DNA from: a virus
Taxonomy: Duplodnaviria > Heunggongvirae > Uroviricota > Caudoviricetes
Strand: one strand, 5' to 3'
Length of the DNA stretch: 64,000 nt
Virus record (IMG/VR): IMGVR_UViG_3300023174_000136
Span: 1-64,000 of that record
Positions within the stretch are counted from its first letter, which is position 1; every line of letters starts with the position of its first letter. The translations under genes were made by a program, and so were the position numbers. Below are positions 6,037-63,650 of the stretch, piece after piece. The notes beneath the pieces were generated by a model. The model saw nothing but the letters and a program-made list of their open reading frames with translations, ran no database searches and was not told the origin of the DNA.

Positions 6037-6048
6037 GGAGACTACGCT

Positions 6049-6525: not shown

Positions 6526-6537
6526 GGAGTTAATATA

Positions 6538-18660: not shown

Positions 18661-18713
18661 ATAACATAGACTGGTTTTTACCTTAACGTCTTGTGTCCTT
18701 ATTAGGAGTTGCT

Positions 18714-21700
18714 ATGCCCGATTTACCAATATATCTAAAAAGATCATCAGTTTCTGGCAAAGTTCCGACCGCTGCTGATCTAGCCTATGGCGAATTGGCC
18801 CTAAACTACACTGATGGTAAATTATATTTTAAATTATCAAATGATGTAATTCATCAAATTCCTGATAGAGCAAATAATGATTTAAGATATCTACTACAAG
18901 CTGGTGGTACGATGACCGGTACACTGGTCATTAATGAATTGACTATTGCTAATTCAACTATGTCTGGAGCATTACAGGTTCGCGGCGGACTTGGAGTCGG
19001 AGGTAGCATTTATGCTTCTGACGTATATTCAAATGGATTAAAGATAGAGGCATTTAATACTTCAACACTAGTTGCACAATCAGTTAGTGCCACAACATCT
19101 AACTTTGCAACAACATCTGGATTTGCACAGAGTTTTAATACCAGTACACTTGTAGCAAATGCAGTCTCTGCATCTACATCAAACTATGCAACTACTAGTG
19201 GATTTGCACAGAGCTTCAACACTTCAACTCTTGTGGCAAATGCAGTATCAGCCACTACAGCCAGTTTTGCAACAACAAGTGGATATGCAGAATCATTTAA
19301 TACAAGTACACTGGTTGCAAATGCAGTATCAGCCACTACAGCCAGTTTTGCAACAACAAGTGGATATGCAGAATCATTTAATACCAGTACACTGGTTGCA
19401 AATGCAGTCTCTGCAACAACATCTAACTATGCAACAACCAGTGGTTATGCACAGAGCTTCAACACAAGTACTTTAGTGGCAAATGCGGTATCAGCTACAA
19501 CATCTAATTATGCAACTACTAGTGGTTATGCAGAATCATTTAATACTGCGACACTTGTATCAAATGCGGTTACTGCGCAGAGTTTAGGCACTGGTATTAT
19601 TAATATTCATAATGCAACTAGTTCCAGTTACTACGGTGATGGTGCATTGATTGTTGCTGGTGGTGTGGGTATAGCCAATGGATTAAATGTTTATGGTAAT
19701 ACAAATATTACAGGTAATCTCAGTGTCTCTGGTAGTATAACAGGAACTAACATATCAGTCACTGTAAATCAAGTTACAGCAACAAGTGGTGTATTTTTTG
19801 GGGACGATACAGGTGCTGGTGCATTATACGCAGGTATACCGGGATATACTCCATTTGGTCAGACTATGTTCCAGGCCGCAGGTAATTTTAATGATTACAT
19901 GGAAATAAATGTTCAAAATATCAATCCAGGAACTAAGAATAGTACAGATATAGTTGCGTCTGCTGACAATGTTGGATTTAATAATTCATTTATTGATATG
20001 GGCATTACTGGCAGCGGATGGGACGGAAGTCAGCATTATAGCTTTGGTACAGTTTTAAATCCCAATGACGGATACCTATTGGTTGGTCATAACACAGTTG
20101 ACAATAGAGGCTCATTGGTAATAGGTACGACTACCAGCGGTACAAATATTAAATTTGTAGTAGCAGCAACTAATGCAAGCTCATCATTAACTCAGGTTAC
20201 ATCAGAATCGGTTGCAATGTCTATAAATCCAGCTGGTACACTTGCAATTTCAACAACCACTGGTGCATTAGTAGTTGTTGGCGGCGTGGGTATTAGTGAT
20301 AGTCTACATGCTGGTAATATATATTCTAACGGAATACTTCTTCAAAATTTTAGTACATCTACACTGGTAGCAAATGCAGTATCAGCAACAACGTCAAACT
20401 ACGCAACAACTAGTGGATTTGCACAGAGCTTTAATACTTCGACACTGGTAGCAAATGCAGTATCAGCAACAACGTCAAACTACGCAACAACTAGTGGATT
20501 TGCACAGAGCTTTAATACAAGCACTTTAGTAGCAAATGCAGTATCAGCAACAACGTCAAACTACGCAACAACTAGTGGATTTGCACAGAGCTTTAATACA
20601 AGCACTTTAGTAGCAAATGCAGTATCGGCAACTAATTTTACTTCTGGAAGAATTGATGGTAGATTAGTTTTAAGTCCAGGAGCAAATAGTACATCTGCTT
20701 GGACTACTAATGGCGTTGCATTAATTCAATCAAGTGCTACTTATACTGACCTAACGTCTTCAGGTACTGTTGCCGCGACGTATGTTAATTTATTTGGTGC
20801 ACCGACTGTCGCGGCAACTAATACTACCACATATACAGAAGCATATAATACATATTTTAAAAGTCCAGTTGCTGGTACAAATACTGCTATTACTAGTGCT
20901 TATGCATTGGGCGCAGATTCGTTAAGTGTGAATGGTAGCGTAGGCGTCCCATTAGGTGGTGCTGGCCTCATTTTTAGTGTGGGTTCATCACAGAGCAACT
21001 CGACTATTAGAATAGGCGGCGCCTCTCAAACTGGTGAATTGACTTTTGGTAGATCCACAGTATCGCAAACTACTTATATTCAGGCTTCTGCTAACACATC
21101 TGGAACAATTAAGACCATTAACTTTGGCACAAGTGGTCTTACAAACTCAAACACTTTACTTAATATCGGTCCAGTATTAGGCACGGGAACTTTTGCAGTT
21201 AACGCAGGTACTGTAGTAACGATTGCTAATACTGCTTCATCTAATAGTACGACTACTGGTGCATTGCAGGTTGTGGGTGGAGTTGGAGTAGGAGGCAATC
21301 TCAATGTTGGCGGCGTAATTACTGCAACAAACATTTATGTTGGAACTTGGCCAGTATCAACCGGTTCAGGTGGTGGCGGACTTTCCTCTGTTGCGATTCA
21401 GTACAACGGTGCATCTATTGGATCTGCTACTACTATTAACTTTGCCACTGGCACTACAGCCACCGTTACTGGATCAGTAGTAACATTGCAAGTATTGTCA
21501 GTAAACACCGCATCATTTGCAACTACTAGTGGATTTGCACAATCATTTAATACTTCAACATTAGTTGCTAATGCAGTATCGGCATCTACATCAAACTATG
21601 CAACTACCTCTGGATTTGCACAATCATTTAATACAAGTACATTAGTTGCTAATGCAGTTTCTGCATCTACATCAAACTATGCAACAACTAGTGGTTTTGC

Positions 21701-22109
21701 ACAGAGCTTCAATACAAGTACACTCGTTGCAAATGCGGTATCGGCAACTACAGCTTCATTTGCAACAACATCTGGTTATGTGCCTAGCTATCAAACAACT
21801 GCGTCAATTACAAATAATGTGCTAACCATAAATCTAACAACAAGTACACTATTTAATGTCAATATGACTGCGGCTATAAACACAGTGACTATAACAAATG
21901 TTGCTGCATCTGGAACAATTTCCAGCTTTATACTAGCACTAAATAATCAAGGATCAGTGTATTCAGTAGTTTGGCCTACATCATTTAGATGGTCCGGAGG
22001 CACTGCGCCAACACTAACTGGTACATTGAATAAAAAAGATGTTATTGTTGCATACACAGATGACAGTGGATCTAACTATTATGCATTTGTTTCAGGAAAT
22101 AATTTATAA
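18714..22109 (+). CDS. large tail fibre with three arrays of a 27-aa (81-bp) tandem repeat
   Basis: AGGAG RBS before ATG 18714. The track's TTG at 18693 is in the same frame. The unit FNTSTLVANAVSATTSNYATTSGFAQS occurs 13 or more times. The N-terminus, LKRSSVSGKVPTAADLAYGELALNYTDGKLYFK, is fibre-like. Confidence 0.7.
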   Translation: MPDLPIYLKRSSVSGKVPTAADLAYGELALNYTDGKLYFKLSNDVIHQIPDRANNDLRYLLQAGGTMTGTLVINELTIANSTMSGALQVRGGLGVGGSIYASDVYSNGLKIEAFNTSTLVAQSVSATTSNFATTSGFAQSFNTSTLVANAVSASTSNYATTSGFAQSFNTSTLVANAVSATTASFATTSGYAESFNTSTLVANAVSATTASFATTSGYAESFNTSTLVANAVSATTSNYATTSGYAQSFNTSTLVANAVSATTSNYATTSGYAESFNTATLVSNAVTAQSLGTGIINIHNATSSSYYGDGALIVAGGVGIANGLNVYGNTNITGNLSVSGSITGTNISVTVNQVTATSGVFFGDDTGAGALYAGIPGYTPFGQTMFQAAGNFNDYMEINVQNINPGTKNSTDIVASADNVGFNNSFIDMGITGSGWDGSQHYSFGTVLNPNDGYLLVGHNTVDNRGSLVIGTTTSGTNIKFVVAATNASSSLTQVTSESVAMSINPAGTLAISTTTGALVVVGGVGISDSLHAGNIYSNGILLQNFSTSTLVANAVSATTSNYATTSGFAQSFNTSTLVANAVSATTSNYATTSGFAQSFNTSTLVANAVSATTSNYATTSGFAQSFNTSTLVANAVSATNFTSGRIDGRLVLSPGANSTSAWTTNGVALIQSSATYTDLTSSGTVAATYVNLFGAPTVAATNTTTYTEAYNTYFKSPVAGTNTAITSAYALGADSLSVNGSVGVPLGGAGLIFSVGSSQSNSTIRIGGASQTGELTFGRSTVSQTTYIQASANTSGTIKTINFGTSGLTNSNTLLNIGPVLGTGTFAVNAGTVVTIANTASSNSTTTGALQVVGGVGVGGNLNVGGVITATNIYVGTWPVSTGSGGGGLSSVAIQYNGASIGSATTINFATGTTATVTGSVVTLQVLSVNTASFATTSGFAQSFNTSTLVANAVSASTSNYATTSGFAQSFNTSTLVANAVSASTSNYATTSGFAQSFNTSTLVANAVSATTASFATTSGYVPSYQTTASITNNVLTINLTTSTLFNVNMTAAINTVTITNVAASGTISSFILALNNQGSVYSVVWPTSFRWSGGTAPTLTGTLNKKDVIVAYTDDSGSNYYAFVSGNNL
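19053..19590 (+). repeat. 81-bp coding tandem repeat array 1 (about 6.5 copies)
   Basis: Repeated DNA and peptide units are visible. Copies differ at a few codons (SNY/ASF, FAQ/YAE). Confidence 0.8.
20347..20640 (+). repeat. 81-bp coding tandem repeat array 2 (about 3.5 copies, nearly identical DNA)
   Basis: The unit tttaatac...gcaaatgcagtatcagcaacaacgtcaaactacgcaacaactagtggatttgcacagagc is repeated almost exactly. Confidence 0.8.
21507..21790 (+). repeat. 81-bp coding tandem repeat array 3 (about 3.5 copies)
   Basis: Same unit, with SAS/SAT variants. Confidence 0.8.
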
Positions 22110-22592: not shown

Positions 22593-25500
22593 ATGCCATT
22601 CTTATTAGAAAAATGGTTATTGACAATTGCACAACAACAAACTTCAGTAACTCCAGTAACTTCTGGATATCTTTATCAAGGTGGTATTAATGCTAATCTT
22701 ACTCAAATTGGAGTAAGTTCCTGGTCTCAGGTTTCATCAGGTTATGCAGACGATAATACCTATGTTCTTCAAGATTCCACGGCTAAAATTACAGTCTTTT
22801 CTACTAGTAATTCTTGGGGACAACTGGGATCAGGAGTCACTGGATCTAGTGGAGGAACTAGTTATCAGCATTCTGGGTCTTGGAAAACTGTTAGCACGGA
22901 TGGAAATTCTGTTATAGGTATAAAAACAGATGGTACATTGTGGGTCTGGGGAAAAAATGACATAGGTCAATTGGGCCTTGTTAATGTAGTTACACTTTCT
23001 AAAGTATCTCCTAGTGGCGATCATACTCTTGGAATTGATCCATTAGGAAAATTATATGCATGGGGAAGAAATCATGTAGGTCAATTAGGTGTTAATAACA
23101 CTACACTACAACCAAATATTCCTACATTAATAGATTCAGGATCTTGGATTCAAGTATCAGCTAGTCTCGGTAATTTTAGTAGTGCAGCAATTCGCGGTGA
23201 TAATACTCTTTGGACATGGGGCGGTAATTCCAGTGCTCAATTAGGACATGGAGATACTGAATCTAAAAGTTCCCCTACGCAAATAGCAGGATCTTGGGCG
23301 CAGGTTTCCATGGGAACAAGTCACACACTGATGCTGAAAACAGATGGCACTGTTTGGGGGACAGGTGTTAATAATAAGGGACAACTAGGAACTTTATCAC
23401 AATCTTGGACTCAAGTTGCAATTGGAGCAAGCCACTCTCTTGCAATTAGCTCTAATGGAACACTCTGGGGATGGGGTTCTAATGGTTATTTACAAATTGG
23501 ATATAGTGTTGGTGGATTTTATAGAAGTCAGCCAGGTTTAGTAACATCAGGATCTTGGAAATCAGTTAGTGCTGGTGTTAGCTATAGTTTGGCGATTGAT
23601 AGCAATGGACTTCTTTATGCCTGGGGCGATAATTTATGGGGACAATTAGGTACAGGAACAAGTGATGATCAGTATTCCACTCCTCAGTTAGTGTCTGGAG
23701 GCGGATCGTGGAAGATAGTATCTGCTACTGAAAGAGGCACGATAGCAATAAAAACAGATGGTACTCTTTGGGCCTGGGGGTATAATCAGCTGTTTAATCA
23801 ACTTGGTCTGAGTTTTACAGATAATTATTATTTAGTTCCTGCCAGACCTTCAAATTCCGCTGGAAGCTGGAATACAGTATCAGCTGGTTCTTCTCACACC
23901 TTGGCAATAAAATCAGATGGTACACTTTATGCCTGGGGTGATAATACTTATGGTCAATTAGGTAATCAACCTTCAGCAGCACTATCATGGTCGCAAATAG
24001 TTTTAGGTAATGCTCACACAGTTGCACTTAGGTCCGATGGAGCATTGTTTACTTGGGGCGCAAATACATACGGGCAGTTAGGTAATAGTAGCTCAACTGC
24101 GGCACAGTCGCCATTCAAAGTAGGATCAAGTTCTTGGGCATTTGTTTCCGCTGGAGCATCACACTCTGCTGCCATTGACATTAATGGATCTCTTTACTTA
24201 TGGGGTCTTAATACTGGTGGCAGACTTGGCGACGGTACAGTAGTATCAAGATCGTCGCCGGTTCAAGTATCGGGTGGTGGAGTTTGGACTCGCGTGGCAT
24301 GTGGACTAACCCATACAACTGCAATAAAATCTGGCGGACTATTATTTTCGTGGGGCGCAAATACTAGTGGTGTTTTAGGACTAGGTACATCAACTGCGGC
24401 TGCTTCAAGTCGTTCGACTCCTCAACAAATTGGTGCCAGTACTTGGTCATTTGTTTCATCTATAAATCTTCATGTTGCAGCTATAACTACTACTGGATTA
24501 CTATTTGCATGGGGCGACGGTGCCGATAGTAAAATTGGAGACGGATTTGCAGTGAACCGTTCATCTCCGGTTCAAGTAGGAACTGGATTTTCTTGGAAAA
24601 CAGCAAGTGCTGGAATAAACCACACGTCCGCAATAAGAACGGATGACACTTTATGGCTGTGGGGACTAGGAACCACTGGACAACTTGGTGATAATACAAG
24701 AGTTACAAAAGCTAGTCCTGTACAGGTTGCAGGCACAGGAACATGGGCCGCAACTGCATCAGGTAATAGTTATACAGTAGCAATCAAAACAGACGGATCA
24801 CTGTTTTCTTGGGGAGCTACGAGTCATATTTTAGGTGATGGCACTACTGTGAGTAGAAGCAGCCCAGTGCAGATTGCTTCATTCGCAGGAACATGGACGT
24901 CGGTTTCTGCAAACTTAAGCACTGCGGTTCTGGTAAACAACAATCGAAGTATTTGGGGATGGGGTGCAAACGCCTCGGGGCAGTTAGGTATTGGAGATAT
25001 TACTACCAGAAGTTCTCCGGTACAAATTGGTGCATCGTTTGCTACAGCAGGAGTTTCTCTAATTTCTTCTGCAACTAATTGGACCGCAGTCTCTGCCGGT
25101 CAATATCATTCTTTGGCCTTAAAATCAGATGGTACACTATGGGCTTGGGGGTCAGGAGTATATGGTCAGTTAGGTCAAGGTAATATTACTTCTTATGCCA
25201 GTCCCGTACAAGTTGTTGGTACATGGACAGCAATAGCAGTGGGAGTGAATCATTCATTGGCAATTAAAAATGATCTTAAAGTTTATGGATGGGGCAGAGG
25301 TGACCTTTATGCTCTTGGAGGCAGTTCTAACATATATACTCCTACTATACTCTACAATTCAACTAATTCAAATTCAATTGCAGCCGGAGGCAACAATTCT
25401 GCGTACTTGATTCCAGGAAATGATAACCTATATACCACGGGATTGAATACTCAAGGACAAAATGGATGGTTCAATACATTTGCTCCTTCTGGTACCGGAT

Positions 25501-28037
25501 TTTCACCGGTTACAAACATAACTGCATTTTCACTTAGTCCTAAACAAATATTGCCAACACAAAGTGGATTTTGGTCGAGTACAACTGCAACTGATATTTC
25601 TGCAGGTGGTTTACATAGTCTTGCCGTCATTTATAACACAAATCCGGATTCAGTTTATGCAATAGCATGGGGTGATAACACTTATGGGCAGTTAGGAAGA
25701 GGAAGTGTAGGATCGCTCGGCTTTGGTCAGGAGGCTACTCCGAGTGTTATGCTAACTCCCGCTGTTGTAGCACTGTCTTATGTAGTGGCAGTTTCTGCTG
25801 GCGGACAACACTCGTTGGTTTTGGATAGATCTGGCAATCTGTCCTCAACGGGAAATAATAATTTTGGTCAATTGGGTACAACATTGTATTTTACAGCAAC
25901 TGGATATTGTAGACCAATGCTTTCGCCTGTAGTAGCGTGTAGTGCTGGATTTTATCACTCATTAGCAATAACATCTAATAGAACTGTATGGGCATGGGGC
26001 GAAAATAGTTATCGTCAAGTTGATAACACAGGAATCTCTCGTAGTTCTCCAGTTCAAGTTTCGGCCACATTATCTGCTAATTTTATTGCTGCTGGTAGCA
26101 TATCAACATTTATAATTCAAACTGCAACTAACACTTTGTTTGTAGCAGGTTATAATCTTTATGGACAATTAGGAATTGGTACAAATAACACCTTTTCTGC
26201 ACTTGTAAGTTCAAGACAAACAACCTTCACAAGCCCATTACAGCTTGGAACCGATATGTGGTCTGCTGTTTCATCAGGTTATTTGTATAATACCGCAATA
26301 AGATCAGATGGGTCGTTGTGGGCATGGGGTACTAATAGCACAGGACAACTTGGAGATATCACAACAGTCACACGCTCTAGTCCTGTTCAAATTGGCACAG
26401 GTGTTTCATGGAAAGCAGTTAGTGCAGGTTATGATCATACATTGGCAATCACTAGCCAAGGAACATTGTACACATGGGGTGATAATTCTAGTGGAAAATT
26501 AGGAACAGTGGACTTGGTAACTCGTTCATCACCTGTTGCTATTGGTGCAGGAACTTGGAATTCAGTAAGTGCTGGTAGAAGTCATAGTTTAGCCATAAAC
26601 AGTCAACGGCAGATGTTTGGGTGGGGATCATATGCTGGTGGAACATTAACGCAAAATTATTCATGGACACAGTCAGCCTCTGGATTATCTCATGCTGCTG
26701 CAATTAAAGCAGATAACACATTATGGCTATGGGGGAAAAATACTTACGGACAGCTTGGAGATTTAACAACAAACTCACGATCTAGTCCTGTTCAAGTTTC
26801 CGGCGGAGGTTTGTGGCAACAGGTTGCCACCGGCGCTTATAGTACTTTTGGCATTAAAACAGATGGAACTCTTTGGGCATGGGGCAGAAATACTCAGGGA
26901 GAACTAGGTACAAATAGCACTGTTAGTGCATCTAGTCCTGTTCAAGTTGCAGGCGGAGGATCTTGGAAAACTGTTGCCGGTAGCAGCAACAGTATTAGTT
27001 TTTTTACATATGGTATTAAAACAGATGGAACTCTTTGGGCATGGGGAGACAACAGTTATGGACAGCTTGGTAAAGGTGATACGATTGCTAGATCAAGTCC
27101 TGTACAAGTTGGCACTGCAACATCATGGTCAAAATTACAAGTAGGATCTTTTGGTCCCTGTGTTATTGACACTGCAGGAAGATTGTGGGTATGTGGATAT
27201 AATAATGACGGAGCGTTAGCACAAAATGATATAGCTGGTCGATCAACACTAGTGCAAGTTACCAGTGGCGCGGTGTCATGGACAACAGTTTCAGCTTCTT
27301 TTGGCGTTTTAGCAATTGATGTTGCTGGTAACTTGTGGGGATGGGGATATAATATATATGGTTCATTGGGAATAGGCGACCAGACGCGCAGAAGCACTCC
27401 TGTACAAGTTACCGCAGTTGCATCTACATGGACCGACGTTGCTTTTATAGGCCATCCTTCTAAGGGTAATAGACAGAGTGCAATAGGAATTGCAGGCAAT
27501 CAAATGTATGGCTGGGGATTTTCAGTCCTTGCTAATACATTAAATATTAACCTTACTCCTGTTACAAATGGATTAAGTGGATTATCATGGAAACCATTGC
27601 CATCTATGAATAGTGTAGCAACATTAATCACACAACGAGGACAACTATGGACATGGGGCTACAATGGACAGGGAAATTTAGGAATAGGAACAACAGATTT
27701 TTATAGTAGCTATTATGGTTATTATGAAATACAACGCGCTTCTTTGCCAATGGACGCAGTATCAGCATATTCTCTAGTCGCAAGATCTAGTCCTGTGCAA
27801 GTCGGTTCGAGTAATCAATGGCAGTCAGCATTTGCCGGAAACAATTTTAATTTAGCAATTAATAATAATGCACTCTATGGGTGGGGATTAAATAACACTA
27901 ATGCAAGCATATCTGGTAGCTTGAGTAATCCTGCTTTCCTTGGTCTACCAGATACATATATTGCTGATCCACAGTTACTTGCAACAACAGCAACATCGGC
28001 ATCGGCAAAGAATCTAACATACATATTAAAGAATTGA
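22593..28037 (+). CDS. giant RCC1-repeat (beta-propeller) protein, 1814 aa
   Basis: About 30 repeats of the RCC1-like signature ...G.LW.WG.N.YGQLG.G....SSPVQV... run throughout. RBS ACGGAG. Confidence 0.75.
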   Translation: MPFLLEKWLLTIAQQQTSVTPVTSGYLYQGGINANLTQIGVSSWSQVSSGYADDNTYVLQDSTAKITVFSTSNSWGQLGSGVTGSSGGTSYQHSGSWKTVSTDGNSVIGIKTDGTLWVWGKNDIGQLGLVNVVTLSKVSPSGDHTLGIDPLGKLYAWGRNHVGQLGVNNTTLQPNIPTLIDSGSWIQVSASLGNFSSAAIRGDNTLWTWGGNSSAQLGHGDTESKSSPTQIAGSWAQVSMGTSHTLMLKTDGTVWGTGVNNKGQLGTLSQSWTQVAIGASHSLAISSNGTLWGWGSNGYLQIGYSVGGFYRSQPGLVTSGSWKSVSAGVSYSLAIDSNGLLYAWGDNLWGQLGTGTSDDQYSTPQLVSGGGSWKIVSATERGTIAIKTDGTLWAWGYNQLFNQLGLSFTDNYYLVPARPSNSAGSWNTVSAGSSHTLAIKSDGTLYAWGDNTYGQLGNQPSAALSWSQIVLGNAHTVALRSDGALFTWGANTYGQLGNSSSTAAQSPFKVGSSSWAFVSAGASHSAAIDINGSLYLWGLNTGGRLGDGTVVSRSSPVQVSGGGVWTRVACGLTHTTAIKSGGLLFSWGANTSGVLGLGTSTAAASSRSTPQQIGASTWSFVSSINLHVAAITTTGLLFAWGDGADSKIGDGFAVNRSSPVQVGTGFSWKTASAGINHTSAIRTDDTLWLWGLGTTGQLGDNTRVTKASPVQVAGTGTWAATASGNSYTVAIKTDGSLFSWGATSHILGDGTTVSRSSPVQIASFAGTWTSVSANLSTAVLVNNNRSIWGWGANASGQLGIGDITTRSSPVQIGASFATAGVSLISSATNWTAVSAGQYHSLALKSDGTLWAWGSGVYGQLGQGNITSYASPVQVVGTWTAIAVGVNHSLAIKNDLKVYGWGRGDLYALGGSSNIYTPTILYNSTNSNSIAAGGNNSAYLIPGNDNLYTTGLNTQGQNGWFNTFAPSGTGFSPVTNITAFSLSPKQILPTQSGFWSSTTATDISAGGLHSLAVIYNTNPDSVYAIAWGDNTYGQLGRGSVGSLGFGQEATPSVMLTPAVVALSYVVAVSAGGQHSLVLDRSGNLSSTGNNNFGQLGTTLYFTATGYCRPMLSPVVACSAGFYHSLAITSNRTVWAWGENSYRQVDNTGISRSSPVQVSATLSANFIAAGSISTFIIQTATNTLFVAGYNLYGQLGIGTNNTFSALVSSRQTTFTSPLQLGTDMWSAVSSGYLYNTAIRSDGSLWAWGTNSTGQLGDITTVTRSSPVQIGTGVSWKAVSAGYDHTLAITSQGTLYTWGDNSSGKLGTVDLVTRSSPVAIGAGTWNSVSAGRSHSLAINSQRQMFGWGSYAGGTLTQNYSWTQSASGLSHAAAIKADNTLWLWGKNTYGQLGDLTTNSRSSPVQVSGGGLWQQVATGAYSTFGIKTDGTLWAWGRNTQGELGTNSTVSASSPVQVAGGGSWKTVAGSSNSISFFTYGIKTDGTLWAWGDNSYGQLGKGDTIARSSPVQVGTATSWSKLQVGSFGPCVIDTAGRLWVCGYNNDGALAQNDIAGRSTLVQVTSGAVSWTTVSASFGVLAIDVAGNLWGWGYNIYGSLGIGDQTRRSTPVQVTAVASTWTDVAFIGHPSKGNRQSAIGIAGNQMYGWGFSVLANTLNINLTPVTNGLSGLSWKPLPSMNSVATLITQRGQLWTWGYNGQGNLGIGTTDFYSSYYGYYEIQRASLPMDAVSAYSLVARSSPVQVGSSNQWQSAFAGNNFNLAINNNALYGWGLNNTNASISGSLSNPAFLGLPDTYIADPQLLATTATSASAKNLTYILKN

Positions 28038-28045
28038 AGGTAAAA

Positions 28046-29770
28046 ATGCACGAAATTGATAAAATGCTACAACTACAGCTTGTTGGAGAACACCAAGCTG
28101 CCAAAGAACTTTCAGACCGATTAGAAAATATTGGTAAAGATCAGATTCTAGATCCTAATGGCAAAAATACCGAGGATATTTGGTTTAGGCACTGCTTTAA
28201 TCGAGGATGGTTCAAACTACAGGAAGGCGAATATCAAGAGGGAAGCCAACTATTAGAGTATGGTAGATTTCTTCAAGTCTATGGTAGTCCTCCATTAAAA
28301 ACCACTAAGCCTATCTATAATCCTGATCAACATGATCTTGAGGGTCGATCTTTAATTATTAGTCTTGAAGGCGGGTTTGGTGACGAAATTATCCATGCAA
28401 GATTTGCAACATCATTTAAGAAAAAAGGCGCCAAAAAGGTTTATATAGCTGCTGCTCCAGAGTTAGTAAGTTTGCTTGAACGTATCGAAGGAGTCGATGG
28501 AGTAATACTCAGAGATCAAGCAGATACAATAGAACATGATTATTGGTTACCGGGATTTAGTGCTGGTTGGTTAGCAGGATACAATTACGATACACTGCCT
28601 AGTGATCCATACCTAAATGCAAATCCAGGCAGTCAGCAAATTTGGAAAAGCATCATTAATAGCGACAAGATAAAAGTTGGTATAAGATGGGCAGGAAATC
28701 CTAAATTTGAACATCAGCAGTTCAGAAGATTTCCTGAAGAATTTATAATCAATTTGTCCAAATACAAGGAACTGCAACTCTATAGTTTTCAAAAAGATTT
28801 CAATACAGTCAATTTGCCTGAAAATGTCGTAGATTTAAATAATCTGTTGATCAGCTGGGAAGATACTGCTGCTGCAATTTCATGTTTAGATATTGTCATT
28901 ACCAGTTGCACCAGTGTTGCTCATCTATCAGCTGCATTAGGCAAAGAAACTTGGGTATTAACTCCGATCTTGCCATATCATACTTGGACTTATCAATGTC
29001 CTGAATCTAACACTTCACCATACTATAAATCAATCACGCTTTATCGTCAACGCACTCCAGGAAAATGGAATGATTGTTTTCAACAACTATACAAGGATAT
29101 CGAGCAGCGATTCAATTTAGAACACATAGATTTGCCCGATCAAGATAAAACTTATCAAAAATTAAATCTTGGATGTGGTGTTAAACATGCTTCGGGATTT
29201 ATTAATGTTGATCGATCTCAGATTTTTTCACCAGACGAGTGTGTTGATCTAGAAGTGTTTCCGTGGCCATGGGCAGATAATTCAATTGATCACATTATAG
29301 CCAAGGATGTGCTTGAACATCTTGGTGATACTTCACAAGATTTTATAAACATAATAAAAGAAATGTATAGAGTCAGTGCAAATGGAGCACTCTGGGAAAT
29401 TCAGGTCCCTCACTGGAGATCCGATAACGCACTAGGCGATCTCACGCATAAACAAATAATAACCAAAAATACATTCCAATTATTTGATCGACAATATGCC
29501 TATGACAAATTGAAAAGCGGGTACAGTGAATCATTATTGGCATTTGAGCATGACATAGATTTAATGATTTGCGGCACAGAATTTGACTATGCCAAAAACT
29601 GGCAAGATAGAATTGCTAAAAATCAAATTTCTGTCGAAGAGCTTGAATATGCTTTAAATACATTTAATAATGTTGCGATTTCAACCAGACTTTTAATTCA
29701 AGTCCATAAGCCTGGTAGATTTAACAACAACGAATTGATGGCATTAATTGATGATTTGCAGAGACCTTAA
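28046..29770 (+). CDS. bifunctional glycosyltransferase family 9 (heptosyltransferase-like) plus class I SAM-dependent methyltransferase
   Basis: The N-terminal half has GT9-like EGGFGDEII...DIVITSCTSVAHLSAALGKETWVL. The C-terminal half has methyltransferase motif I LNLGCGVKHASGFINVD and IIAKDVLEHL. ATG 28046 follows GAAGG. The track's TTG at 28034 is in the same frame. Confidence 0.6.
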   Translation: MHEIDKMLQLQLVGEHQAAKELSDRLENIGKDQILDPNGKNTEDIWFRHCFNRGWFKLQEGEYQEGSQLLEYGRFLQVYGSPPLKTTKPIYNPDQHDLEGRSLIISLEGGFGDEIIHARFATSFKKKGAKKVYIAAAPELVSLLERIEGVDGVILRDQADTIEHDYWLPGFSAGWLAGYNYDTLPSDPYLNANPGSQQIWKSIINSDKIKVGIRWAGNPKFEHQQFRRFPEEFIINLSKYKELQLYSFQKDFNTVNLPENVVDLNNLLISWEDTAAAISCLDIVITSCTSVAHLSAALGKETWVLTPILPYHTWTYQCPESNTSPYYKSITLYRQRTPGKWNDCFQQLYKDIEQRFNLEHIDLPDQDKTYQKLNLGCGVKHASGFINVDRSQIFSPDECVDLEVFPWPWADNSIDHIIAKDVLEHLGDTSQDFINIIKEMYRVSANGALWEIQVPHWRSDNALGDLTHKQIITKNTFQLFDRQYAYDKLKSGYSESLLAFEHDIDLMICGTEFDYAKNWQDRIAKNQISVEELEYALNTFNNVAISTRLLIQVHKPGRFNNNELMALIDDLQRP

Positions 29771-30464
29771 TTTACATTACAGTCATAATACAAAAGTTGA
29801 AAAAGCATATATCATAACAGTAACCGATAATAGCAAGAGTCAACAATACTCACAACGGTGCCAGGCAAGCTGCGATAGGGTTGGCATGCCATGGCAAACA
29901 TGGGAAGCTTACAACGGATACAACAATCCTATAACGGTTCCTGGACATGCAACCAATCATGCTGTTATGAATATATTAAAAGTTACCGATCACTATTTGA
30001 CCCGAGGTGAAGTTGCTTGCGCACTCAGTCATATTAGTTTGTGGAGTCATTGTGCTACTATAGATCAGCCCATTGTTATTTTAGAGCACGATGCCGTTAT
30101 GATCCAAAGATTTGAAGAGCATAGTTCATTTAATTCCATTATCTATCTTGGTGGAGCAGAATGGGTAAAACATAACTGGCCAATATTAAATATACCTCCA
30201 CATGCAACAGAGGGTCCAAATTATCACTTTATTTGTCGAGCGCACGCTTATTCAATTGATCCTACTATGGCAAAAAATCTTTTAGCTCATGTGATTAAAC
30301 ATGGAATTTGTGCTCCTTTAGATATCATGTTAAGAGCTGATTTGTTTAATATCACGCATAATGGTGTTTTTGCCTACGATGACGGAGATGCTGCCCTGAC
30401 AACAATTGAAAATCGACCCGCTGAAGGCAGAACTACTAAACGCAATGACAGGCTAGAGTATTAA
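29748..30464 (+). CDS. glycosyltransferase family 25 (LPS/LOS beta-glycosyltransferase-like)
   Basis: GEVACALSHISLWSHCA...PIVILEHD matches the GT25 signature (GEiGCxLSHxxLW). Confidence 0.65.
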   Translation: MMICRDLNLHYSHNTKVEKAYIITVTDNSKSQQYSQRCQASCDRVGMPWQTWEAYNGYNNPITVPGHATNHAVMNILKVTDHYLTRGEVACALSHISLWSHCATIDQPIVILEHDAVMIQRFEEHSSFNSIIYLGGAEWVKHNWPILNIPPHATEGPNYHFICRAHAYSIDPTMAKNLLAHVIKHGICAPLDIMLRADLFNITHNGVFAYDDGDAALTTIENRPAEGRTTKRNDRLEY

Positions 30465-31072
30465 TGTATAAGTTTACTTGGGATTTTAATTTTAACAAAG
30501 AAGGTGGCGCAAAAGCAAATATTGCTGCACTGATCAATGAATTTGGCCTTCCAACAACTATTGTTGAAATAGGATCATACGAAGGATTAACTACTTTTTG
30601 GATGAATGATGAAATTGGACCGTTGAATCCTAATCTTAAAATTTATAGTATAGATCCGCATGGCGGAAGTATAGACATAAAAGACGATTTTAACACAGTT
30701 GCTGAAAATTTTCACCACAATATGCAGGTATGCGAAAATAATAAAATCACTCACCTTAATAAAAAAAGTGAGCATGGCCTCGTTGATTTAATAAATCAAA
30801 GAATAGAAGCTGAATTGATTTATATTGATGGTGATCACACTGCCGGTACTGTATTAACTGACCTAGTCTTATCGTGGCAAATATTGAAAAATGGCGGAGT
30901 TATACTCTGTGACGATACAGTGGTGTGGAAATACAAAGATAAAAACGGAGCCTGTTCTGCGCAAATGAGTCCTAGACTAGCGGTTGAAACATTCATTCAA
31001 TGCCATTGGCATGAACTTGAAATTTTGGCCTTGCCAAACAGTACTCAAACAGCATTTAGGAAAATTATATGA
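30464..31072 (+). CDS. class I SAM-dependent methyltransferase (CmcI/TylF-like, Methyltransf_24-type)
   Basis: TIVEIGSYEGLTTFW, IYSIDPHGG, LIYIDGDHTAGTVLTDL and NGGVILCDD are the motifs of this family. Confidence 0.6.
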   Translation: MYKFTWDFNFNKEGGAKANIAALINEFGLPTTIVEIGSYEGLTTFWMNDEIGPLNPNLKIYSIDPHGGSIDIKDDFNTVAENFHHNMQVCENNKITHLNKKSEHGLVDLINQRIEAELIYIDGDHTAGTVLTDLVLSWQILKNGGVILCDDTVVWKYKDKNGACSAQMSPRLAVETFIQCHWHELEILALPNSTQTAFRKII

Positions 31073-31863
31073 ACAAAATAGTTTTTACCGCAGGATTGCC
31101 AAGAGCCGGATCTACTCTTCTTGGCGCAATATTAAATCAAAATCCTAGATTTTCAGCAGGTATTACAAATCCCTTGGCACCATGTATTCGATCAGTAATT
31201 AAAGAAACCTCGACTAGACTAGGAAATAGACAAGTTTGCGATATTGAAACAAGAAAGCGCATGGTTAAATCTCTCATAGAAATGTATCATGAAGAGGACT
31301 CTGCTGAAGTAATTTTTAACCATAACCGTACTTGGCCACTGGCTTTGAACATTATCAAGGATATATATCCAGATGCAAAATTAATATTATTAGTTCGTGA
31401 CCTAGGATGGATATTAGATAGTTTTGAAGTTTTATTAAGAAAGAATCCCTATGTATATTCAAGATTATTTGATAATCTTGAGACGGATACAGTTTACGCT
31501 AGGTGTGAATCTCTTTTGAAAGAAAAAGGCACAGTTGGATTTGCCTATGATTGTGTTAAACAAGCAATGACAAGTGAATTTTCTGAAGATATTATGATCA
31601 TTGATTATGATTCTTTTGTGTCGAATCCCAAATTAGCAATTGAAAATTTATATAATTTCATTGATGAACCGCTATTTGAGCATGACTTTGAAAATGTTGA
31701 GAGTAGTTTTGACGAATATGATGAAGATTTAAGTGCTCCAGGATTACACACTGTAAAACGCAGAGTGGAGTTTGTTCCTAGAAAATCAATTATTCCTCCT
31801 GATATTTGGTTAAGTGTTGAGGGCAAAGAAGTTTGGAAAATTCAAAATTCAAAGAATAGCTAA
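31069..31863 (+). CDS. sulfotransferase (PAPS-dependent)
   Basis: FTAGLPRAGSTLLGAIL is the 5'-PSB P-loop. LLVRDLGWILDSF is a 3'-PB-like motif. Confidence 0.6.
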   Translation: MNKIVFTAGLPRAGSTLLGAILNQNPRFSAGITNPLAPCIRSVIKETSTRLGNRQVCDIETRKRMVKSLIEMYHEEDSAEVIFNHNRTWPLALNIIKDIYPDAKLILLVRDLGWILDSFEVLLRKNPYVYSRLFDNLETDTVYARCESLLKEKGTVGFAYDCVKQAMTSEFSEDIMIIDYDSFVSNPKLAIENLYNFIDEPLFEHDFENVESSFDEYDEDLSAPGLHTVKRRVEFVPRKSIIPPDIWLSVEGKEVWKIQNSKNS

Positions 31864-38509: not shown

Positions 38510-40339
38510 ATGACAGCAAGAATTAAACTAAGAAGAGATACAGCCGCTAATTGGACCACTAATGATCCGGTATTGGCATTAGGTGAAGCAGGATACGACT
38601 CTACTAACAATGAACTGAGAGTAGGTGACGGTACCACTGCATGGAGCGGATTAGAAGCTGTTGGCGGCGGAGTTAGCAATGCTGTTGCTATTGCTCCAGA
38701 ATTTGGACCTGCTATAACTTTTGCCCGTCCAGAAAATACAGCAACAGATGCTGTTAATGCTGTTGATGTTATTGACGCAGGTGTGGCACTAGGTCGTAAC
38801 AGTAATCAGGGTGGACTATTAAACACTTTAGAAGACAGCCTAAGCGGTTACAACAGCGGTAACTATGCTGGCCAACCAACATATACAGAGTGGAACACAG
38901 ATGGTTTAGCAGATTTAAGCAACGTAACCACTAGAGTTTATGACAACTTTAAGAACATGAAACAGAGTCTCAGCGACGACGAGTTTCTTGCCACCCATTT
39001 GATCATGCACGATACACTCAACGACAAGTATTACACATTTAAGTTCAGTCGCTGGAGTGTGAGGGATAATGGTGGTGATGGTGGATACAGTTATGTTCGT
39101 AGATTGATCAATCATACTCAATACTTTACTAAACCTAACTATCAAACTACCACTACCGACACGGTTGCTACTGGATTAACAATCAAACGAGGAAACAACG
39201 GCGGTATCTATAATGTTGCAGCTGAAGGTAGTTTTAACAGTGATGTTAGTCCAAGTGGCACAGAATGGAATATTGATGGATGGAGTGACCTAAGCAATCT
39301 ACTCACAAGAACTTATACTAACTTTACATCAGCATTCAGTTATCAAATTGGCGAAAGAATCATTGGCAAAGAAGCTGTCATGCACGATACTATCAATGAC
39401 AAATATTATGCTGTAAAATTCCTGGAATGGGGACAGAATAATGGCGGCAGTTTTACCTGGCAACGCAGATTAATTGATACTACTCAACTCAATGAAGGTC
39501 TACACTTTGCTGATGGCACAGTACAGACCACAGCTGGTGTTACATTCAATGATGACGGGAGTTTGAATTTAGATGGCGGACTTGCCTTGCCATATCAAAA
39601 TAACCCATCCTATCGGACTGGCAACAACAACTACGGCCGAACATTAAAGTTAAGTAATGACAGCAAAAATTCAATTGTTATCACAGGACCGGTGGCTACA
39701 GAGAACAACTCATATGCCCAGCGTATCGTAATCCAGGGACAGCGTGGCTATGGCTCAACCAGTACTACAGGTGAAGGTGGTGATGTTTATATCTGGGGAG
39801 GAGTTGGTGGAGAAACCAACAATAACAGCAATGGCTGGGGCTACGGTGGTGGCAGCGGCGGTGATGTTAAATTACGCGGTGGTGAAGGCCTTAACAGCGA
39901 CGGTGGTTATGCTAAAATTGAAGGTGGCAATGTTGCTCACTTTAACACCTCTACCACAGGCAATGCTGGATTTGTGGAAATCACCGGCGGTGATGTAACT
40001 GTTGATAATGCCGCAGTTAGTAGCCACGGCGGCGACATTAGAATCACAGGTGGTCGTGCTTACTCAGCAACCACACAGTCTGGAGTTGTTCAGGTAATCA
40101 CAGGCGGTCGTGCCAATGGTGATGTTATTGGTGACAAGATTTGGACATTTGGCAATGATGGTAGGACTAAAATTCCGCACGGCTCTAGTAATCCAACCAC
40201 CGCTCGTGGTGCTGACGGAGACAAAGCAGGTATGATACTAGTTTCAGGTGCTTATCTATACTATTGCTACGCTGATTATACAGATGGTCAATCAGCAATT
40301 TGGCAAAAAGTAAGTATGGATAATACAGACTGGGATTAA
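38510..40339 (+). CDS. tail fibre with the conserved N-terminal domain, an internal ~80-aa duplication and a Gly-rich GGD-repeat C-terminus
   Basis: CGGAG RBS. The N-terminus is ARIKLRRDTAANWTTNDPVLALGEAGYDSTNNELRVGDGTTAWSGL. Duplicated segments EWNTDGLADLSNVTTRVYDNF...HDTLNDKYYTFKF and EWNIDGWSDLSNLLTRTYTNF...HDTINDKYYAVKF are visible. Confidence 0.65.
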   Translation: MTARIKLRRDTAANWTTNDPVLALGEAGYDSTNNELRVGDGTTAWSGLEAVGGGVSNAVAIAPEFGPAITFARPENTATDAVNAVDVIDAGVALGRNSNQGGLLNTLEDSLSGYNSGNYAGQPTYTEWNTDGLADLSNVTTRVYDNFKNMKQSLSDDEFLATHLIMHDTLNDKYYTFKFSRWSVRDNGGDGGYSYVRRLINHTQYFTKPNYQTTTTDTVATGLTIKRGNNGGIYNVAAEGSFNSDVSPSGTEWNIDGWSDLSNLLTRTYTNFTSAFSYQIGERIIGKEAVMHDTINDKYYAVKFLEWGQNNGGSFTWQRRLIDTTQLNEGLHFADGTVQTTAGVTFNDDGSLNLDGGLALPYQNNPSYRTGNNNYGRTLKLSNDSKNSIVITGPVATENNSYAQRIVIQGQRGYGSTSTTGEGGDVYIWGGVGGETNNNSNGWGYGGGSGGDVKLRGGEGLNSDGGYAKIEGGNVAHFNTSTTGNAGFVEITGGDVTVDNAAVSSHGGDIRITGGRAYSATTQSGVVQVITGGRANGDVIGDKIWTFGNDGRTKIPHGSSNPTTARGADGDKAGMILVSGAYLYYCYADYTDGQSAIWQKVSMDNTDWD

Positions 40340-40929
40340 CTTCTAATACCCTGTTCTTTTAACTTAATACAAGTATCGCATCTTCCACAAGGTGCGATAC
40401 TTTTTTCATTGTACACAGGGTGGCGACATGACCAAAACATGTTACGCAATGATTCAGGCAAACTATCATAAATCTCACGCTTGCTCATTTCAAGCACGGG
40501 ATATATTTTCTCCACAGTTGTAAATGCCGCAAGTATAGCATTTGCTCGTTTGCGCCTATCTTCTAAACTATAGTTACTATCATTGGCCTGCATTCCCATA
40601 GCAACTCGTACAATGTTAGGATTAACACTACAAATATATCCAGCAAAGAAGTTGATACTGTCTGTGTCATACATAAACTGTCCATTGTAGGGTTGTGATC
40701 CTATTTCGCTTTCACTATAGATAAAACTAAATCCCAGTTTTTCTAGCTCTTTGAGAACACGATCAACAACTATTGCTTCGGCGCGATCTCTGTGTTCTAC
40801 ATTACGATTGTGTATGTGATGTATGTGTAGAATGTAGTCTTTATATTCTTTATCAGTTAACAGTTTGTATATCATGCCCAAGCTGTCTAATCCGCCCGAA
40901 TACATGGCTAATATTATTTGTTGTTCCAT
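40336..40929 (-). CDS. QueC-like PP-loop ATPase (7-cyano-7-deazaguanine synthase family)
   Basis: The N-terminal PP-loop is SGGLDS. The C-terminal Cys cluster CRHPVYNEKSIAPCGRCDTC matches the QueC zinc-site spacing. The gene is on the minus strand inside a + strand fibre cluster. Confidence 0.5.
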   Translation of the reverse strand: MEQQIILAMYSGGLDSLGMIYKLLTDKEYKDYILHIHHIHNRNVEHRDRAEAIVVDRVLKELEKLGFSFIYSESEIGSQPYNGQFMYDTDSINFFAGYICSVNPNIVRVAMGMQANDSNYSLEDRRKRANAILAAFTTVEKIYPVLEMSKREIYDSLPESLRNMFWSCRHPVYNEKSIAPCGRCDTCIKLKEQGIRS

Positions 40930-41381
40930 ATATAAAATGTATAAACCTCATTAATAGGATGTTCTTGTGGTCGTGGTGTTAGTTCTTCAGCACAGGGAAA
41001 ATAACAAGCATACTTAGTAGGCCAGTTGGGATTTAGAAAAGTTCGTGATATAAAGCAATCACAGTTTGCTAGTACAATAGGCAATAGATGATGTGTAAAC
41101 TCTTTGCCAAGACTTAGACCGCCATCTATGATAATAGTATCCCAGTGTTCATTCAGAGTGAACCAATCTTTTATTAATATCTTAGGATCGTCATACACTG
41201 GCTCTAGGTCCCATGCTTCCGTGCATAAAGGTAACAACAGTTTAGTGCTACCTAACAGCAACACGCGGCCTTTGCAATAACTTTCAAATACACGATAATC
41301 ATCATCATTGGGCGCGGCAGGCCATTGTAATCCTGACCAAAATATAGAATCGTTGATTATACTCATGTGGGTATTTAACAC
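40914..41381 (-). CDS. hypothetical protein co-oriented with the QueC-like gene (16-nt overlap), possibly a degenerate Rossmann-fold methyltransferase
   Basis: 155-aa ORF with weak motif-I/IV-like segments (VLLLGSTKLL, DTIIIDGG). I recognise no confident family. Confidence 0.4.
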   Translation of the reverse strand: MLNTHMSIINDSIFWSGLQWPAAPNDDDYRVFESYCKGRVLLLGSTKLLLPLCTEAWDLEPVYDDPKILIKDWFTLNEHWDTIIIDGGLSLGKEFTHHLLPIVLANCDCFISRTFLNPNWPTKYACYFPCAEELTPRPQEHPINEVYTFYIWNNK

Positions 41382-41516
41382 CGAGTAGATCAGCTAATGC
41401 AATAAAGAATGCGATATTCTAACTAGATAAATATAGAATTCAGAGATAAACAATAACATTAATATTTAATAAATAATAATGTGCAGGGACAATACAGGCC
41501 CGCCTAGGAGAATTAA

Positions 41517-46057: not shown

Positions 46058-46330
46058 TTATTTCTTGGTTGCACCTGCGTTAACAAATGCATACATCTTT
46101 TCGGCAGTTTCAATTACTTTTTCGAGACCAGGAAATTCAGGCATGCCCACCGTAGTTACAAGTTGTCCTGTCTTTTGGTCTCGCTCAGTAGACATTTCCC
46201 AACCATTGAACTTAAAGTGAAACTCTTCAGCTACAAGTTCTTTGGCCAACTTTAAAATATCACTGCGGATTTCATATCCGTTCTTGTTGAACTTAACTTC
46301 TGGTAGTTTTGGCATTTCAAATGATGACAT
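46058..46330 (-). CDS. hypothetical protein
   Basis: Minus-strand ORF of 90 aa with an AGGAA RBS. Confidence 0.45.
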   Translation of the reverse strand: MSSFEMPKLPEVKFNKNGYEIRSDILKLAKELVAEEFHFKFNGWEMSTERDQKTGQLVTTVGMPEFPGLEKVIETAEKMYAFVNAGATKK

Positions 46331-58892: not shown

Positions 58893-59474
58893 TTATGATT
58901 TTTTAGATTTACTTTTTAAATGATTCGCAAGATTACCGGCATTTAATTCTTTTTGACAACACAGACAACATGCGTACGGCTTGCCATTGGATTTTTTTAA
59001 TTTTTGTAGGGTTTCGAGAGAGTGTTTTTTTCCTTTTCTAGAAGCACTCATCTTGGCTTTTGATTCATCGGAATGTCCCTTGTTGTACAATGGATGTTTT
59101 TCTCCCGCAAATTGTCCAATTCTTGCTAATGAATTTTTTGCCCTTGTTTCAACAGAATGTTTTCGCCCATACATAGGATTGTCTACACCTGAATTTCTTG
59201 GTCCTCTATTTCCACCAAGCTTCATATTATATGTGTCTTTTCTAGCGATGAATTCATCATTCACTAAGGTTTCTTCTAATTTATAGGCTTCGTCGATGCT
59301 CTCGAATATATGTAAAATTTCTTTGATAAAATGTTCTTTTCCGTGTTTCTTTATTGCACGTTTTAAAGAAGTACCAGATCCCATATAAGAATCGTGTAAA
59401 TCATTTGTACCGTGTACTCCAATATAAATTTTATTATTGACTTTATTGGTTATTTTATATATAATGTACATCAT
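58893..59474 (-). CDS. GIY-YIG homing endonuclease (I-TevI-like) with NUMOD3-like repeats and a C-terminal zinc finger
   Basis: The GIY-YIG core is YIIYKITNKVNNKIYIGVHGT...SYMGSG. KHSVETRAKNS, KHSDESKAKMS and KHSLETLQKL are NUMOD3-like. The C-terminal Cys cluster is CCLCCQK. Confidence 0.8.
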   Translation of the reverse strand: MMYIIYKITNKVNNKIYIGVHGTNDLHDSYMGSGTSLKRAIKKHGKEHFIKEILHIFESIDEAYKLEETLVNDEFIARKDTYNMKLGGNRGPRNSGVDNPMYGRKHSVETRAKNSLARIGQFAGEKHPLYNKGHSDESKAKMSASRKGKKHSLETLQKLKKSNGKPYACCLCCQKELNAGNLANHLKSKSKKS

Positions 59475-63294: not shown

Positions 63295-63303
63295 AACGTT
63301 ATC

Positions 63304-63365
63304 AGTTGCTCGAAAGCTAACTGAAAGATGTAAAGACGGCGGTTCGACTCCGCCCATCTCCACCA
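63304..63365 (+). ncRNA. tRNA-like 3' fragment (hairpin, T-arm, acceptor 3' strand, ACCA). It is a putative small RNA or attP-type tRNA 3' end, not a complete tRNA
   Basis: GGCGG-TTCGACT-CCGCC is a canonical T-arm with a TTCGA loop. It is followed by CATCTCC, A and CCA. No matching 5' acceptor strand (GGAGATG) or D/anticodon arm is present upstream. A 7-bp hairpin lies at 63304-63322. Confidence 0.35.
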
Positions 63366-63650
63366 TCTACGCTGTGCATTTAGTATCTGCTAGATAGTAT
63401 TGTCTAAAGACTTAGACTAACGCTATCCTTATATAGCACAGTGTAGTTGATGGGGATGAACTGGGATCGATTTGCATTACATAGGAAAGTCTAGACTGAT
63501 TGGTTGGCCGCATATAAGCCAAAACTGTAAATGTCAACTTTGTTGCACATAATGATAATGATCTTTCAGTAATGGAAATTGCTGCTTGATCTAACGATCA
63601 TTCGGAGTTTGTGGGTGTACTCTGTCAAATAAACACCCTCACTTTTCTTA

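Follow-up and report, generated by a model that had tools for sequence, protein, structure and literature searches.

An overlapping gene pair antisense to a fibre cluster

The 64 000 nt stretch of DNA analysed here (positions 1 to 64,000 of IMG/VR record IMGVR_UViG_3300023174_000136, hereafter the window) comes from an uncultured giant phage, and an identical copy of the locus is carried by a 334-kb contig, ENA ERZ2680843 NODE_37. Within a cluster of plus-strand fibre genes lie two overlapping minus-strand genes, whose products we refer to as Q, a QueC-like protein, and M, its partner protein (Table 1). What is new here is a QueC-superfamily subfamily, hitherto uncharacterised, that abounds in uncultured giant phages and is joined by overlap or fusion to a methyltransferase-fold family with no Pfam entry. 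An initial annotation, made from the nucleotide sequence, had placed the two open reading frames (ORFs) at 40336-41381 and had presented them as the only minus-strand genes between 17 and 46 kb. Both statements were borne out, the remaining minus-strand ORFs of that interval being shadow ORFs within long plus-strand genes; the closest independent minus-strand ORFs are at 15152-15664 (HNH) and 46058-46330.

Q and M are real genes under purifying selection and not chance ORFs. The median ratio of non-synonymous to synonymous substitution rates (dN/dS) among IMG/VR relatives is ~0.11 for both, at a dS of ~1.6-1.8, and metagenomic homologues with E<=1e-3 number 967 for Q and 801 for M. Against 50,697 phage records, megablast of the 2.5-kb region around the pair gave zero DNA matches, as did tblastn of M; the ribonucleotide reductase of the window has a best identity of 60%, to Xanthomonas phages. 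The start of M is placed at the ATG and not at an alternative GTG at 41381 (40914-41381 on the minus strand, 155 aa), because the gene calls made in metagenomes agree with the family alignment in favouring the former. The conserved N terminus of Q, MEQQIILAMYSGG, is the beta strand required before the PP-loop, and the 197-aa start is therefore supported, as hence is the overlap with M. Related loci show the same overlapping layout, and the overlap suggests that translation of M and Q may be coupled.

Relatives of the locus tie the two genes together more closely. Among 80 IMG/VR loci with Q at 63-88% identity, on contigs of up to 354 kb, 76 carry M directly upstream, overlapping Q; the upstream sequence is present in 79 of the 80. 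The four exceptions comprise one locus cut at a contig end, two without M, and one (L018) in which an internal deletion at ~5928-6013 has cut M to its first ~20 and last 9 codons; Q is intact there, at 81% identity to the Q of the window, and can apparently persist without M. The pair is always antisense to its neighbours, and the flanking fibre-type genes vary greatly among contigs, including collagen-like and lectin-like genes, peptidases and, in some contigs, replication genes. Thus the pair is a fixed antisense island in the hypervariable fibre region of a giant-phage clade. Its description in the initial annotation as an insert did not hold, as the pair has the local base composition and GC content and occupies a constant position and orientation throughout this large clade; a mobile or recent insertion was rejected on those grounds.

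Two further proteins, P0299 (369 aa) and P0323 (357 aa), which represent two other lineages, are Q-M fusions that share just 36% identity with each other and align to the M profile by hhalign at 97.2 and 98.4%, respectively. Large phages of a second clade carry, after Q, a member of the M family, another methyltransferase-like protein that we call MT2 (235-238 aa, with weak methyltransferase matches), or the two together. MT2 was considered as a possible M-like protein but on testing proved to be separate from the M family, and it has no counterpart in the window. At two loci (L099 and L103), Q and MT2 are separated by a gene of the M family (hhalign 98.5%), giving Q-M-MT2 operons. The overlap, the fusions and the presence of MT2 in the second clade therefore show Q to be repeatedly tied to methyltransferase-fold proteins. 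In one subclade (L072, L073, L079, L080 and L082), a gene for a 2-oxoglutarate-Fe(II) oxygenase (PF13759) lies directly upstream of M and Q on the same strand and a conserved 82-aa gene lies downstream, an arrangement that could represent a four-gene operon. In other subclades a related oxygenase, or a fatty-acid-desaturase-like gene, adjoins the pair on the opposite strand.

Family placement of Q and M

Q had been described as QueC-like, with an SGGxDS PP-loop and a C-terminal four-cysteine site. The PP-loop is present as SGGLDS at residues 11-16, of which S11, G12, G13, L14 and S16 are invariant, and D15 nearly so, both in the clade alignment and in a 36-sequence family alignment. Also invariant across the family are K150 and the four cysteines, C168, C181, C184 and C187; the spacing of these is Cx12CxxCxxC, however, and not Cx13CxxCxxC as first read, the first Cys being displaced with respect to QueC. 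Q matched Pfam family PF06508 at 25.6 bits (cut-off 22) over residues 136-189 only, a PP-loop family at its N terminus, phrog_1550 ('QueC-like') at 1.1e-16 and the PADLOC QueC model at 2.5e-5. Narrow clade profiles gave nothing useful against PDB sequences, a diverse family profile being required. Such a profile, built from 36 diverse members, aligned over its positions 5-191 with residues 2-204 of Bacillus subtilis QueC (3bl5; E 2.8e-5), which is the full length, and matched QueC 2pg3 at 3.6e-4, with weaker scores for Cap9, YcfA and QatC; by hhalign the family matched Escherichia coli QueC at 89% probability over 175 columns. Because of these full-length matches, we count Q as a true, if distant, member of the QueC superfamily, with the Rossmann-like alpha/beta fold of PP-loop enzymes. 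That part of the first description stands, whereas equivalence to preQ0 synthase is not supported: Q scored 19.6 bits against the NCBIfam QueC equivalog TIGR00364, for which the cut-off is 150.3.

The canonical QueC signature, as set out in a 2026 survey of PF06508, consists of SGGxDS, YxQxHxxE, VPxRN, YPDC, K165 and C(x)8CxxCxxC, and each of the substitutions Y35A, R99A and Y131A abolishes the function of E. coli QueC (PMC13329287). At the YxQxHxxE position Q keeps the Glu alone, the Tyr, Gln and His positions being taken by His, Val and Arg or by variable residues, depending on the alignment. At VPxRN and YPDC the alignment shows (M/F)YD(T/S)D, and GMQAND ahead of a gap, with neither Arg-Asn nor Tyr-Pro-Asp-Cys. 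Throughout the Q family, residues other than those of QueC, some of them variable, stand where QueC has Y35/Q37/H39, R99/N100 and Y131-P-D-C, and nothing is kept of the QueC pocket beyond the Glu, the Asp preceding YPDC and the Lys. The family has a signature of its own, made up of an h-H-h-H-H strand, NxExR, (Y/F)SES, WSCR and PCGxCxxC.

Seven PF06508 clusters (1-6 and 9) were characterised in the same survey, namely canonical QueC, QatC, LarE, PfkB-linked proteins, WbpG-type sugar amidotransferases, GMP synthase and Cap9, with three small archaeal clusters (7, 8 and 10) lying outside its analysis (PMC13329287). As judged from its combination of length, motifs and neighbours, which fits none of the seven, the Q family is a distinct subfamily. 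The singleton phage 'QueC-like' proteins were considered probably to be another PP-loop subfamily by Hutinet et al. (2019). Q does not share the SGGxDSxY loop, CxxC(x)6CxC motif and 300-400 aa length that mark WbpG/PseA (PF06508 cluster 5). A [4Fe-4S] tRNA thiolase of the TtuA/NcsA/TtcA type was also considered, following the Foldseek ranking and a DsrE neighbour at one locus (L092), and was rejected as the leading model on the QueC-knuckle Cys pattern and the lack of conservation of C100; the three-Cys Fe-S site in the catalytic domain, the flanking zinc fingers and the ~300 aa length of these enzymes are not features of Q.

The partner had been called Rossmann-like, and M does have the seven-stranded Rossmann-like fold of class-I S-adenosylmethionine (SAM) methyltransferases, with many small-molecule methyltransferases among the structures nearest to it. 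M has no match in Pfam, NCBIfam or PHROG, 29 of 30 diverse family members have no Pfam match, and a diverse M profile found no PDB relative. When 1.84 billion representative proteins were searched exhaustively with a profile, only 82 relatives were recovered, mostly of 140-165 aa, and by this measure M is a small, distinct family. G39, D53, W68, D81-G82, R108, F110 and W147 are invariant, and some of these (D53, W68 and D81-G82 for motifs II-IV) fall, by eye, where methyltransferase motifs I-IV are expected. Motif I reads LLLG(S/C)T (LLLGST in the window), with one invariant Gly and no GxGxG; with the glycine-rich loop so reduced, binding of SAM is therefore plausible but unproven. The N terminus is variable and non-glycine, and carries a conserved P-x-x-P-(S/N) motif of its own. 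Elsewhere M domains are fused to an FkbM methyltransferase, a class II aldolase and an Lcl_C domain, and also to a ~300-aa module that by eye resembles an adenylate-forming ligase. The isoelectric points of Q and M are 6.3 and 4.7, and neither protein has extra nucleic-acid-binding or accessory domains.

The surroundings of the pair

A single TTAA palindrome terminates both Q and the fibre gene convergent with it; their stop codons therefore overlap, with zero intergenic space (Table 1). A terminator-like hairpin of the fibre gene, with a 14-bp stem followed by TTTTTT (-18.4 kcal/mol), lies 32 nt past its stop, inside the antisense codons for the Cys4 knuckle of Q. By eye it is retained in ~2/3 of unique relatives, some of which carry stem variants with compensatory changes in both arms (ATCACAC/GTGTGAT and ATTGCAC/GTGCAAT); such paired changes suggest that a terminator lying within coding sequence is under selection. 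On the other side of the pair, the AT-rich divergent region upstream of M is presumed to hold the promoter of the pair, and a consensus promoter scan found a number of sites no higher than chance, with none on the minus strand of that region.

Table 1. Positions of the Q-M pair, its motifs and associated features (window numbering, except for the last row, which follows locus L086)
Feature	Position	Strand	Description
Q	40336-40929	minus	197 aa, ATG start; QueC-superfamily PP-loop ATP pyrophosphatase
M	40914-41366	minus	150 aa, ATG at 41366; minimal class-I SAM-methyltransferase-fold protein
Overlap of M end and Q start	40914-40929	minus	16 nt, read directly from the sequence
SGGLDS PP-loop codons (Q residues 11-16)	40882-40899	minus	Motif invariant in alignments, D15 nearly so
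Cys4 knuckle codons (C168-x12-C181-x2-C184-x2-C187)	40369-40428	minus	Aligns with the QueC zinc motif region
AT-rich divergent intergenic region	41382-41516		Between M (-) and a 119-aa gene at 41517 (+); presumed promoter region
Terminator-like hairpin and T-run	40371-40412	plus	Of convergent fibre gene 38510-40339; antisense within the 3' coding part of Q
TTAA palindrome	40336-40339	both	Stop codons of the fibre gene (+) and Q (-)
Four enzyme genes between fibre ORFs	28034-31863	plus	578-aa protein with weak Methyltransf_11 match; GT25 glycosyltransferase; Methyltransf_24; sulfotransferase
Two Q paralogues without M (L086, Desulfobacterales metagenome-assembled genome)	2880-3512; 5983-6612	minus; plus	35% and 41% identical to the Q of the window

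A number of genes near members of the Q family have products that handle sugars. The four enzyme genes located between fibre ORFs of the window suggest a decoration of glycans or proteins tied to the virion fibres. Genes for Nucleotid_trans, IspD, GT25 and LicD proteins lie 2-4 kb downstream at L099 and L103, and an epimerase/dehydratase is encoded near the Q family member of L102. The two paralogues of L086 adjoin a GT2/GT1 fusion, three GNAT acetyltransferases, a BKACE enzyme and a DUF4915 protein. Sugar-handling genes are thus found near Q family members in four independent contexts (the window, L099/L103, L102 and L086), and the M domains joined to an FkbM methyltransferase and to a class II aldolase are in keeping with this theme. 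Two distant PP-loop loci (L088 and L090) have uninformative contexts, and the 9 kb past the end of the window (L108) hold NAD-salvage genes only, for NAMPT and an NMNAT-Nudix pair.

The absence of queD, queE, folE and dpdA from the window, as noted in the initial annotation, was confirmed in two ways. A Pfam scan of the concatenated translations of the window ORFs, minus the pair and five fibre ORFs (1138, 1814, 1627, 609 and 719 aa), gave no FolE, QueD, QueE, TGT/DpdA, TatD, KAP ATPase or CD-NTase. In addition, tblastn with the Tgt, QueA, QueD, QueE, FolE and QueC proteins of E. coli and the DpdA, FolE, QueD and QueE proteins of phage 9g found nothing at E<=0.01 in the whole window and ~1.03 Mb of other fetched loci (the related loci and two cultured-phage regions). 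Taking the window together with the next 9 kb, no folE, queD, queE, tgt or dpdA gene, and no part of a Qat system or of a cyclic-oligonucleotide-based anti-phage signalling system (CBASS), was found in the ~73 kb examined of the ~334-kb genome. QatA (a KAP ATPase) and QatD (a TatD nuclease) had no Pfam or PADLOC matches in the window. The deazaguanylation site of type IV CBASS is an M(G/S)G(G/S)GG motif, and no protein of the window or of the 80 related loci begins with it. A search of the literature for a PP-loop and methyltransferase pair in fibre clusters found nothing; two phage papers that mention 'QueC-like' proteins give the annotation alone.

Other features of the window lie apart from the pair. 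No tRNA genes were found, and a permuted transfer-messenger RNA (tmRNA) gene is present at 63301-63589(+) (Rfam RF04321, with 87.5 bits where the gathering score is 47), which is also called by ARAGORN, with the tag peptide AKTVNVNFVAHNDNDLSVMEIAA. The window encodes a homologue of translation initiation factor IF-1 at 14926-15144(+), a RimK-type ATP-grasp ligase at 61544-62425(+) and an SPFH/Band 7 protein at 8222-9613(+). Homing-endonuclease-like genes are of the HNH type at 15152-15664(-) and 1679-2488(+) and of the GIY-YIG/NUMOD3 type at 58893-59474(-), the last lying between the glutaredoxin and ThyX genes. Of the long fibre-region products, the 1138-aa fibre protein encoded at 18693-22109(+) contains many near-identical copies of a ~27-aa repeat (FNTSTLVANAVSATTSNYATTSGFAQS), and the 1814-aa protein encoded at 22593-28037(+) is, by eye, full of RCC1-like WGxNxxGQLG repeats.

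Proposed chemistry and comparison with known systems

In all characterised PP-loop enzymes, the oxygen of a carboxyl or carbonyl group is adenylated, and AMP is then replaced by a nitrogen or sulfur nucleophile. By analogy with the characterised members of the QueC scaffold, Q would transfer AMP from ATP to the oxygen of a carboxyl (or carbonyl) group on its substrate, after which ammonia or an amine would displace AMP to leave an amide, an amidine or a nitrile; M, for which the gene fusions point to physical coupling with Q, would methylate the same substrate or the product. We hypothesize, giving the idea a little under an even chance, that Q-M may be a coupled ATP-dependent adenylating amidoligase and methyltransferase whose small substrate is not 7-carboxy-7-deazaguanine (CDG). 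The loss of motifs goes part of the way to showing that the Q pocket is remodelled, and on this account the substrate is most likely not CDG. The QueC-type Cys4 knuckle and the non-conservation of C100 make formation of an amide, amidine or nitrile likelier than thiolation. Both proteins are minimal, acidic to neutral and devoid of accessory binding domains, so that a small substrate is probably to be favoured over DNA or tRNA. As to its identity, the leading guess, itself rather doubtful, is a sugar or sugar-nucleotide that would decorate the virion or a cell-surface glycan, with a nucleobase-like metabolite ranked second. The initial annotation had envisaged a new nucleic-acid modification or anti-defence module; the fusions strengthen the case for an uncharacterised modification module, whereas nothing found is specific to a nucleic-acid target or to anti-defence.

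Several observations weigh against this hypothesis. The proposed chemistry is drawn wholly from analogy and the substrate is a guess. QatC lacks the canonical QueC motifs and is nevertheless proposed to use CDG (PMC13329287), so that loss of these motifs does not exclude a deazaguanine substrate; moreover, the absence of deazaguanine genes applies to the ~73 kb of the genome that was read. M, with no GxGxG loop and no match to any methyltransferase sequence model, could be a non-catalytic adaptor, and its occurrence beside or fused to more typical methyltransferases (P0253, and MT2 in L099 and L103) fits such a role equally well. Three relatives with intact upstream sequence have Q without M. 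Finally, the sugar-enzyme neighbours are kilobases distant from the pair, and sugar genes are absent from L094, L098 and L101, where small early-type genes lie near ThyX, and from L092, where DsrE and Fe-S proteins are encoded.

The QatC precedent also lends itself to a different explanation, in which Q would adenylate a carboxylate, be it CDG or some other acid, and ligate it to an amine on a structural protein of the phage or on a host protein, in the manner of Cap9 and QatC, and M could be an adaptor or a methylator of the adduct, the role being virion protein modification or anti-defence. We consider this improbable. Neither the window nor the related loci encode a protein with the glycine-rich N terminus that such conjugation would modify in type IV CBASS, and no TGT/Cap10, CD-NTase, QatA or QatD was found; M itself, with an N terminus that is non-glycine and, in the fusions, not free, cannot be a substrate of the QatB or CD-NTase type. 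Furthermore, the unit lies away from structural genes in the second phage clade. The Qat-like reading raised in the initial annotation fares no better, as Q scored 14 bits against the NCBIfam QatC model NF041925 (cut-off 280). A shade less probable still is direct modification of nucleic acid, in which Q would activate a base carbonyl in DNA or in tRNA or rRNA for amination or thiolation, as TilS, ThiI, TtuA and YcfA do, and the group so formed would be methylated by M. Such a role would suit the PP-loop, but there is no THUMP, PRC or other RNA- or DNA-binding module, the isoelectric points are those given above, the four invariant cysteines form a QueC-type knuckle and not a three-Cys Fe-S thiolase site, small-molecule methyltransferases are abundant among the structures nearest M, and the window has no tRNA genes.

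Very improbable, in our estimate, is that Q functions as a synthase of preQ0 or 7-amido-7-deazaguanine whose companions dpdA, folE, queD and queE would be encoded beyond the window or provided by the host, with M methylating a deazaguanine derivative. The larger, unread part of the genome leaves room for such genes, but FolE, QueD, QueE, Tgt and DpdA were not found in the window, the next 9 kb or the ~1 Mb of related loci. The TIGR00364 score is far below its cut-off, the three residues essential in E. coli QueC are not conserved, and E. coli QueC itself had no tblastn match to the window at E<=0.01. Linkage to queD and queE is typical of canonical QueC and not of the other PF06508 clusters (PMC13329287), and the singleton phage QueC-like proteins were set apart from it by Hutinet et al. 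(2019). Whatever probability remains after the coupled amidoligase-methyltransferase and these three alternatives belongs to something else. JGI records label Q family genes '7-cyano-7-deazaguanine synthase', a label that calls for caution, since it would wrongly flag the phages concerned as having deazaguanine DNA modification. As a compact and clonable two-protein system, Q-M offers a means of finding new PP-loop chemistry in phages.

Among cultured phages, gp2 of Mycobacterium phage DS6A (3e-23) and ExsB of Saccharomonospora phage PIS 136 (7e-41) match the Q family profile. Like Q, they are orphans with regard to deazaguanine genes; unlike it, they have no M partner, and their identity to the Q of the window is 25-26%. 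DS6A gp2 comes after the small terminase gene, and an ATP-grasp protein is encoded after PIS 136 ExsB; an M-like identity was considered for the upstream gene of each and rejected, DS6A gp1 being the small terminase and PIS 136 Pas16 being unrelated. The QueC-like proteins of phages ECML-4 and Muddy (Hutinet et al., 2019) were not recovered by tblastn and may be of another subfamily.

The N-acetyl sugar amidotransferases (WbpG/PseA; PF06508 cluster 5; 8wex) are PP-loop enzymes that amidate sugars in glycan pathways, and because sugar-enzyme neighbours recur they are a possible functional analogue of Q. In the case of M, class-I small-molecule methyltransferases (3dli and DhpI 3ou2; Methyltransf_11/25-like) show 9-15% identity, and M differs from them in having no substrate-binding lid, a reduced motif I and an N-terminal motif of its own. 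Canonical QueC (PF06508 cluster 1; 3bl5, 2pg3) and Q are alike in fold, in the N-terminal SGGxDS, in the Lys after beta5, in the C-terminal four-Cys knuckle and in full-length homology, and they are of similar size (~220-230 aa and 197 aa). They are unlike in sequence, with an identity of ~14%, in the lack from Q of YxQxH, VPxRN and YPDC, and in Cys spacing, which is Cx12 in Q and Cx8 in QueC; Q has no queD or queE neighbours and is described as obligately paired with a methyltransferase-fold protein.

QueC-family proteins are known to have roles beyond preQ0, as Cap9 of type IV CBASS and QatC of QatABCD are protein deazaguanylases that attach nucleobases to proteins in anti-phage defence. Like Q, each is a repurposed scaffold with a dedicated partner; QatC resembles Q in its remodelled active-site motifs, and Cap9 in its minimal size. 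However, QatC is ~400 aa, with extensions at its N and C termini, which Q does not have, and Cap9 keeps the canonical core of Y/FxQ(x)5E, RN and YxDC, motifs that are missing from Q. The Q locus further differs in being phage-encoded and not located in defence islands, with no CD-NTase, Cap10, QatA, QatB or QatD, and in a partner of methyltransferase fold that has no glycine-rich free N terminus and is fused to Q in some lineages. It is tempting to speculate, although we think it rather unlikely, that the Q-M pair would be another case, borne by phages, of the QueC scaffold being put to a new use, the third after Cap9 and QatC, present in at least two giant-phage clades and also in actinophages and some bacteria, in which an adenylating ligase is hard-wired to a minimal methyltransferase and yields an undescribed methylated amide or amidine, either as a modified nucleobase or nucleotide in phage nucleic acid or as a sugar decoration of the virion fibres.

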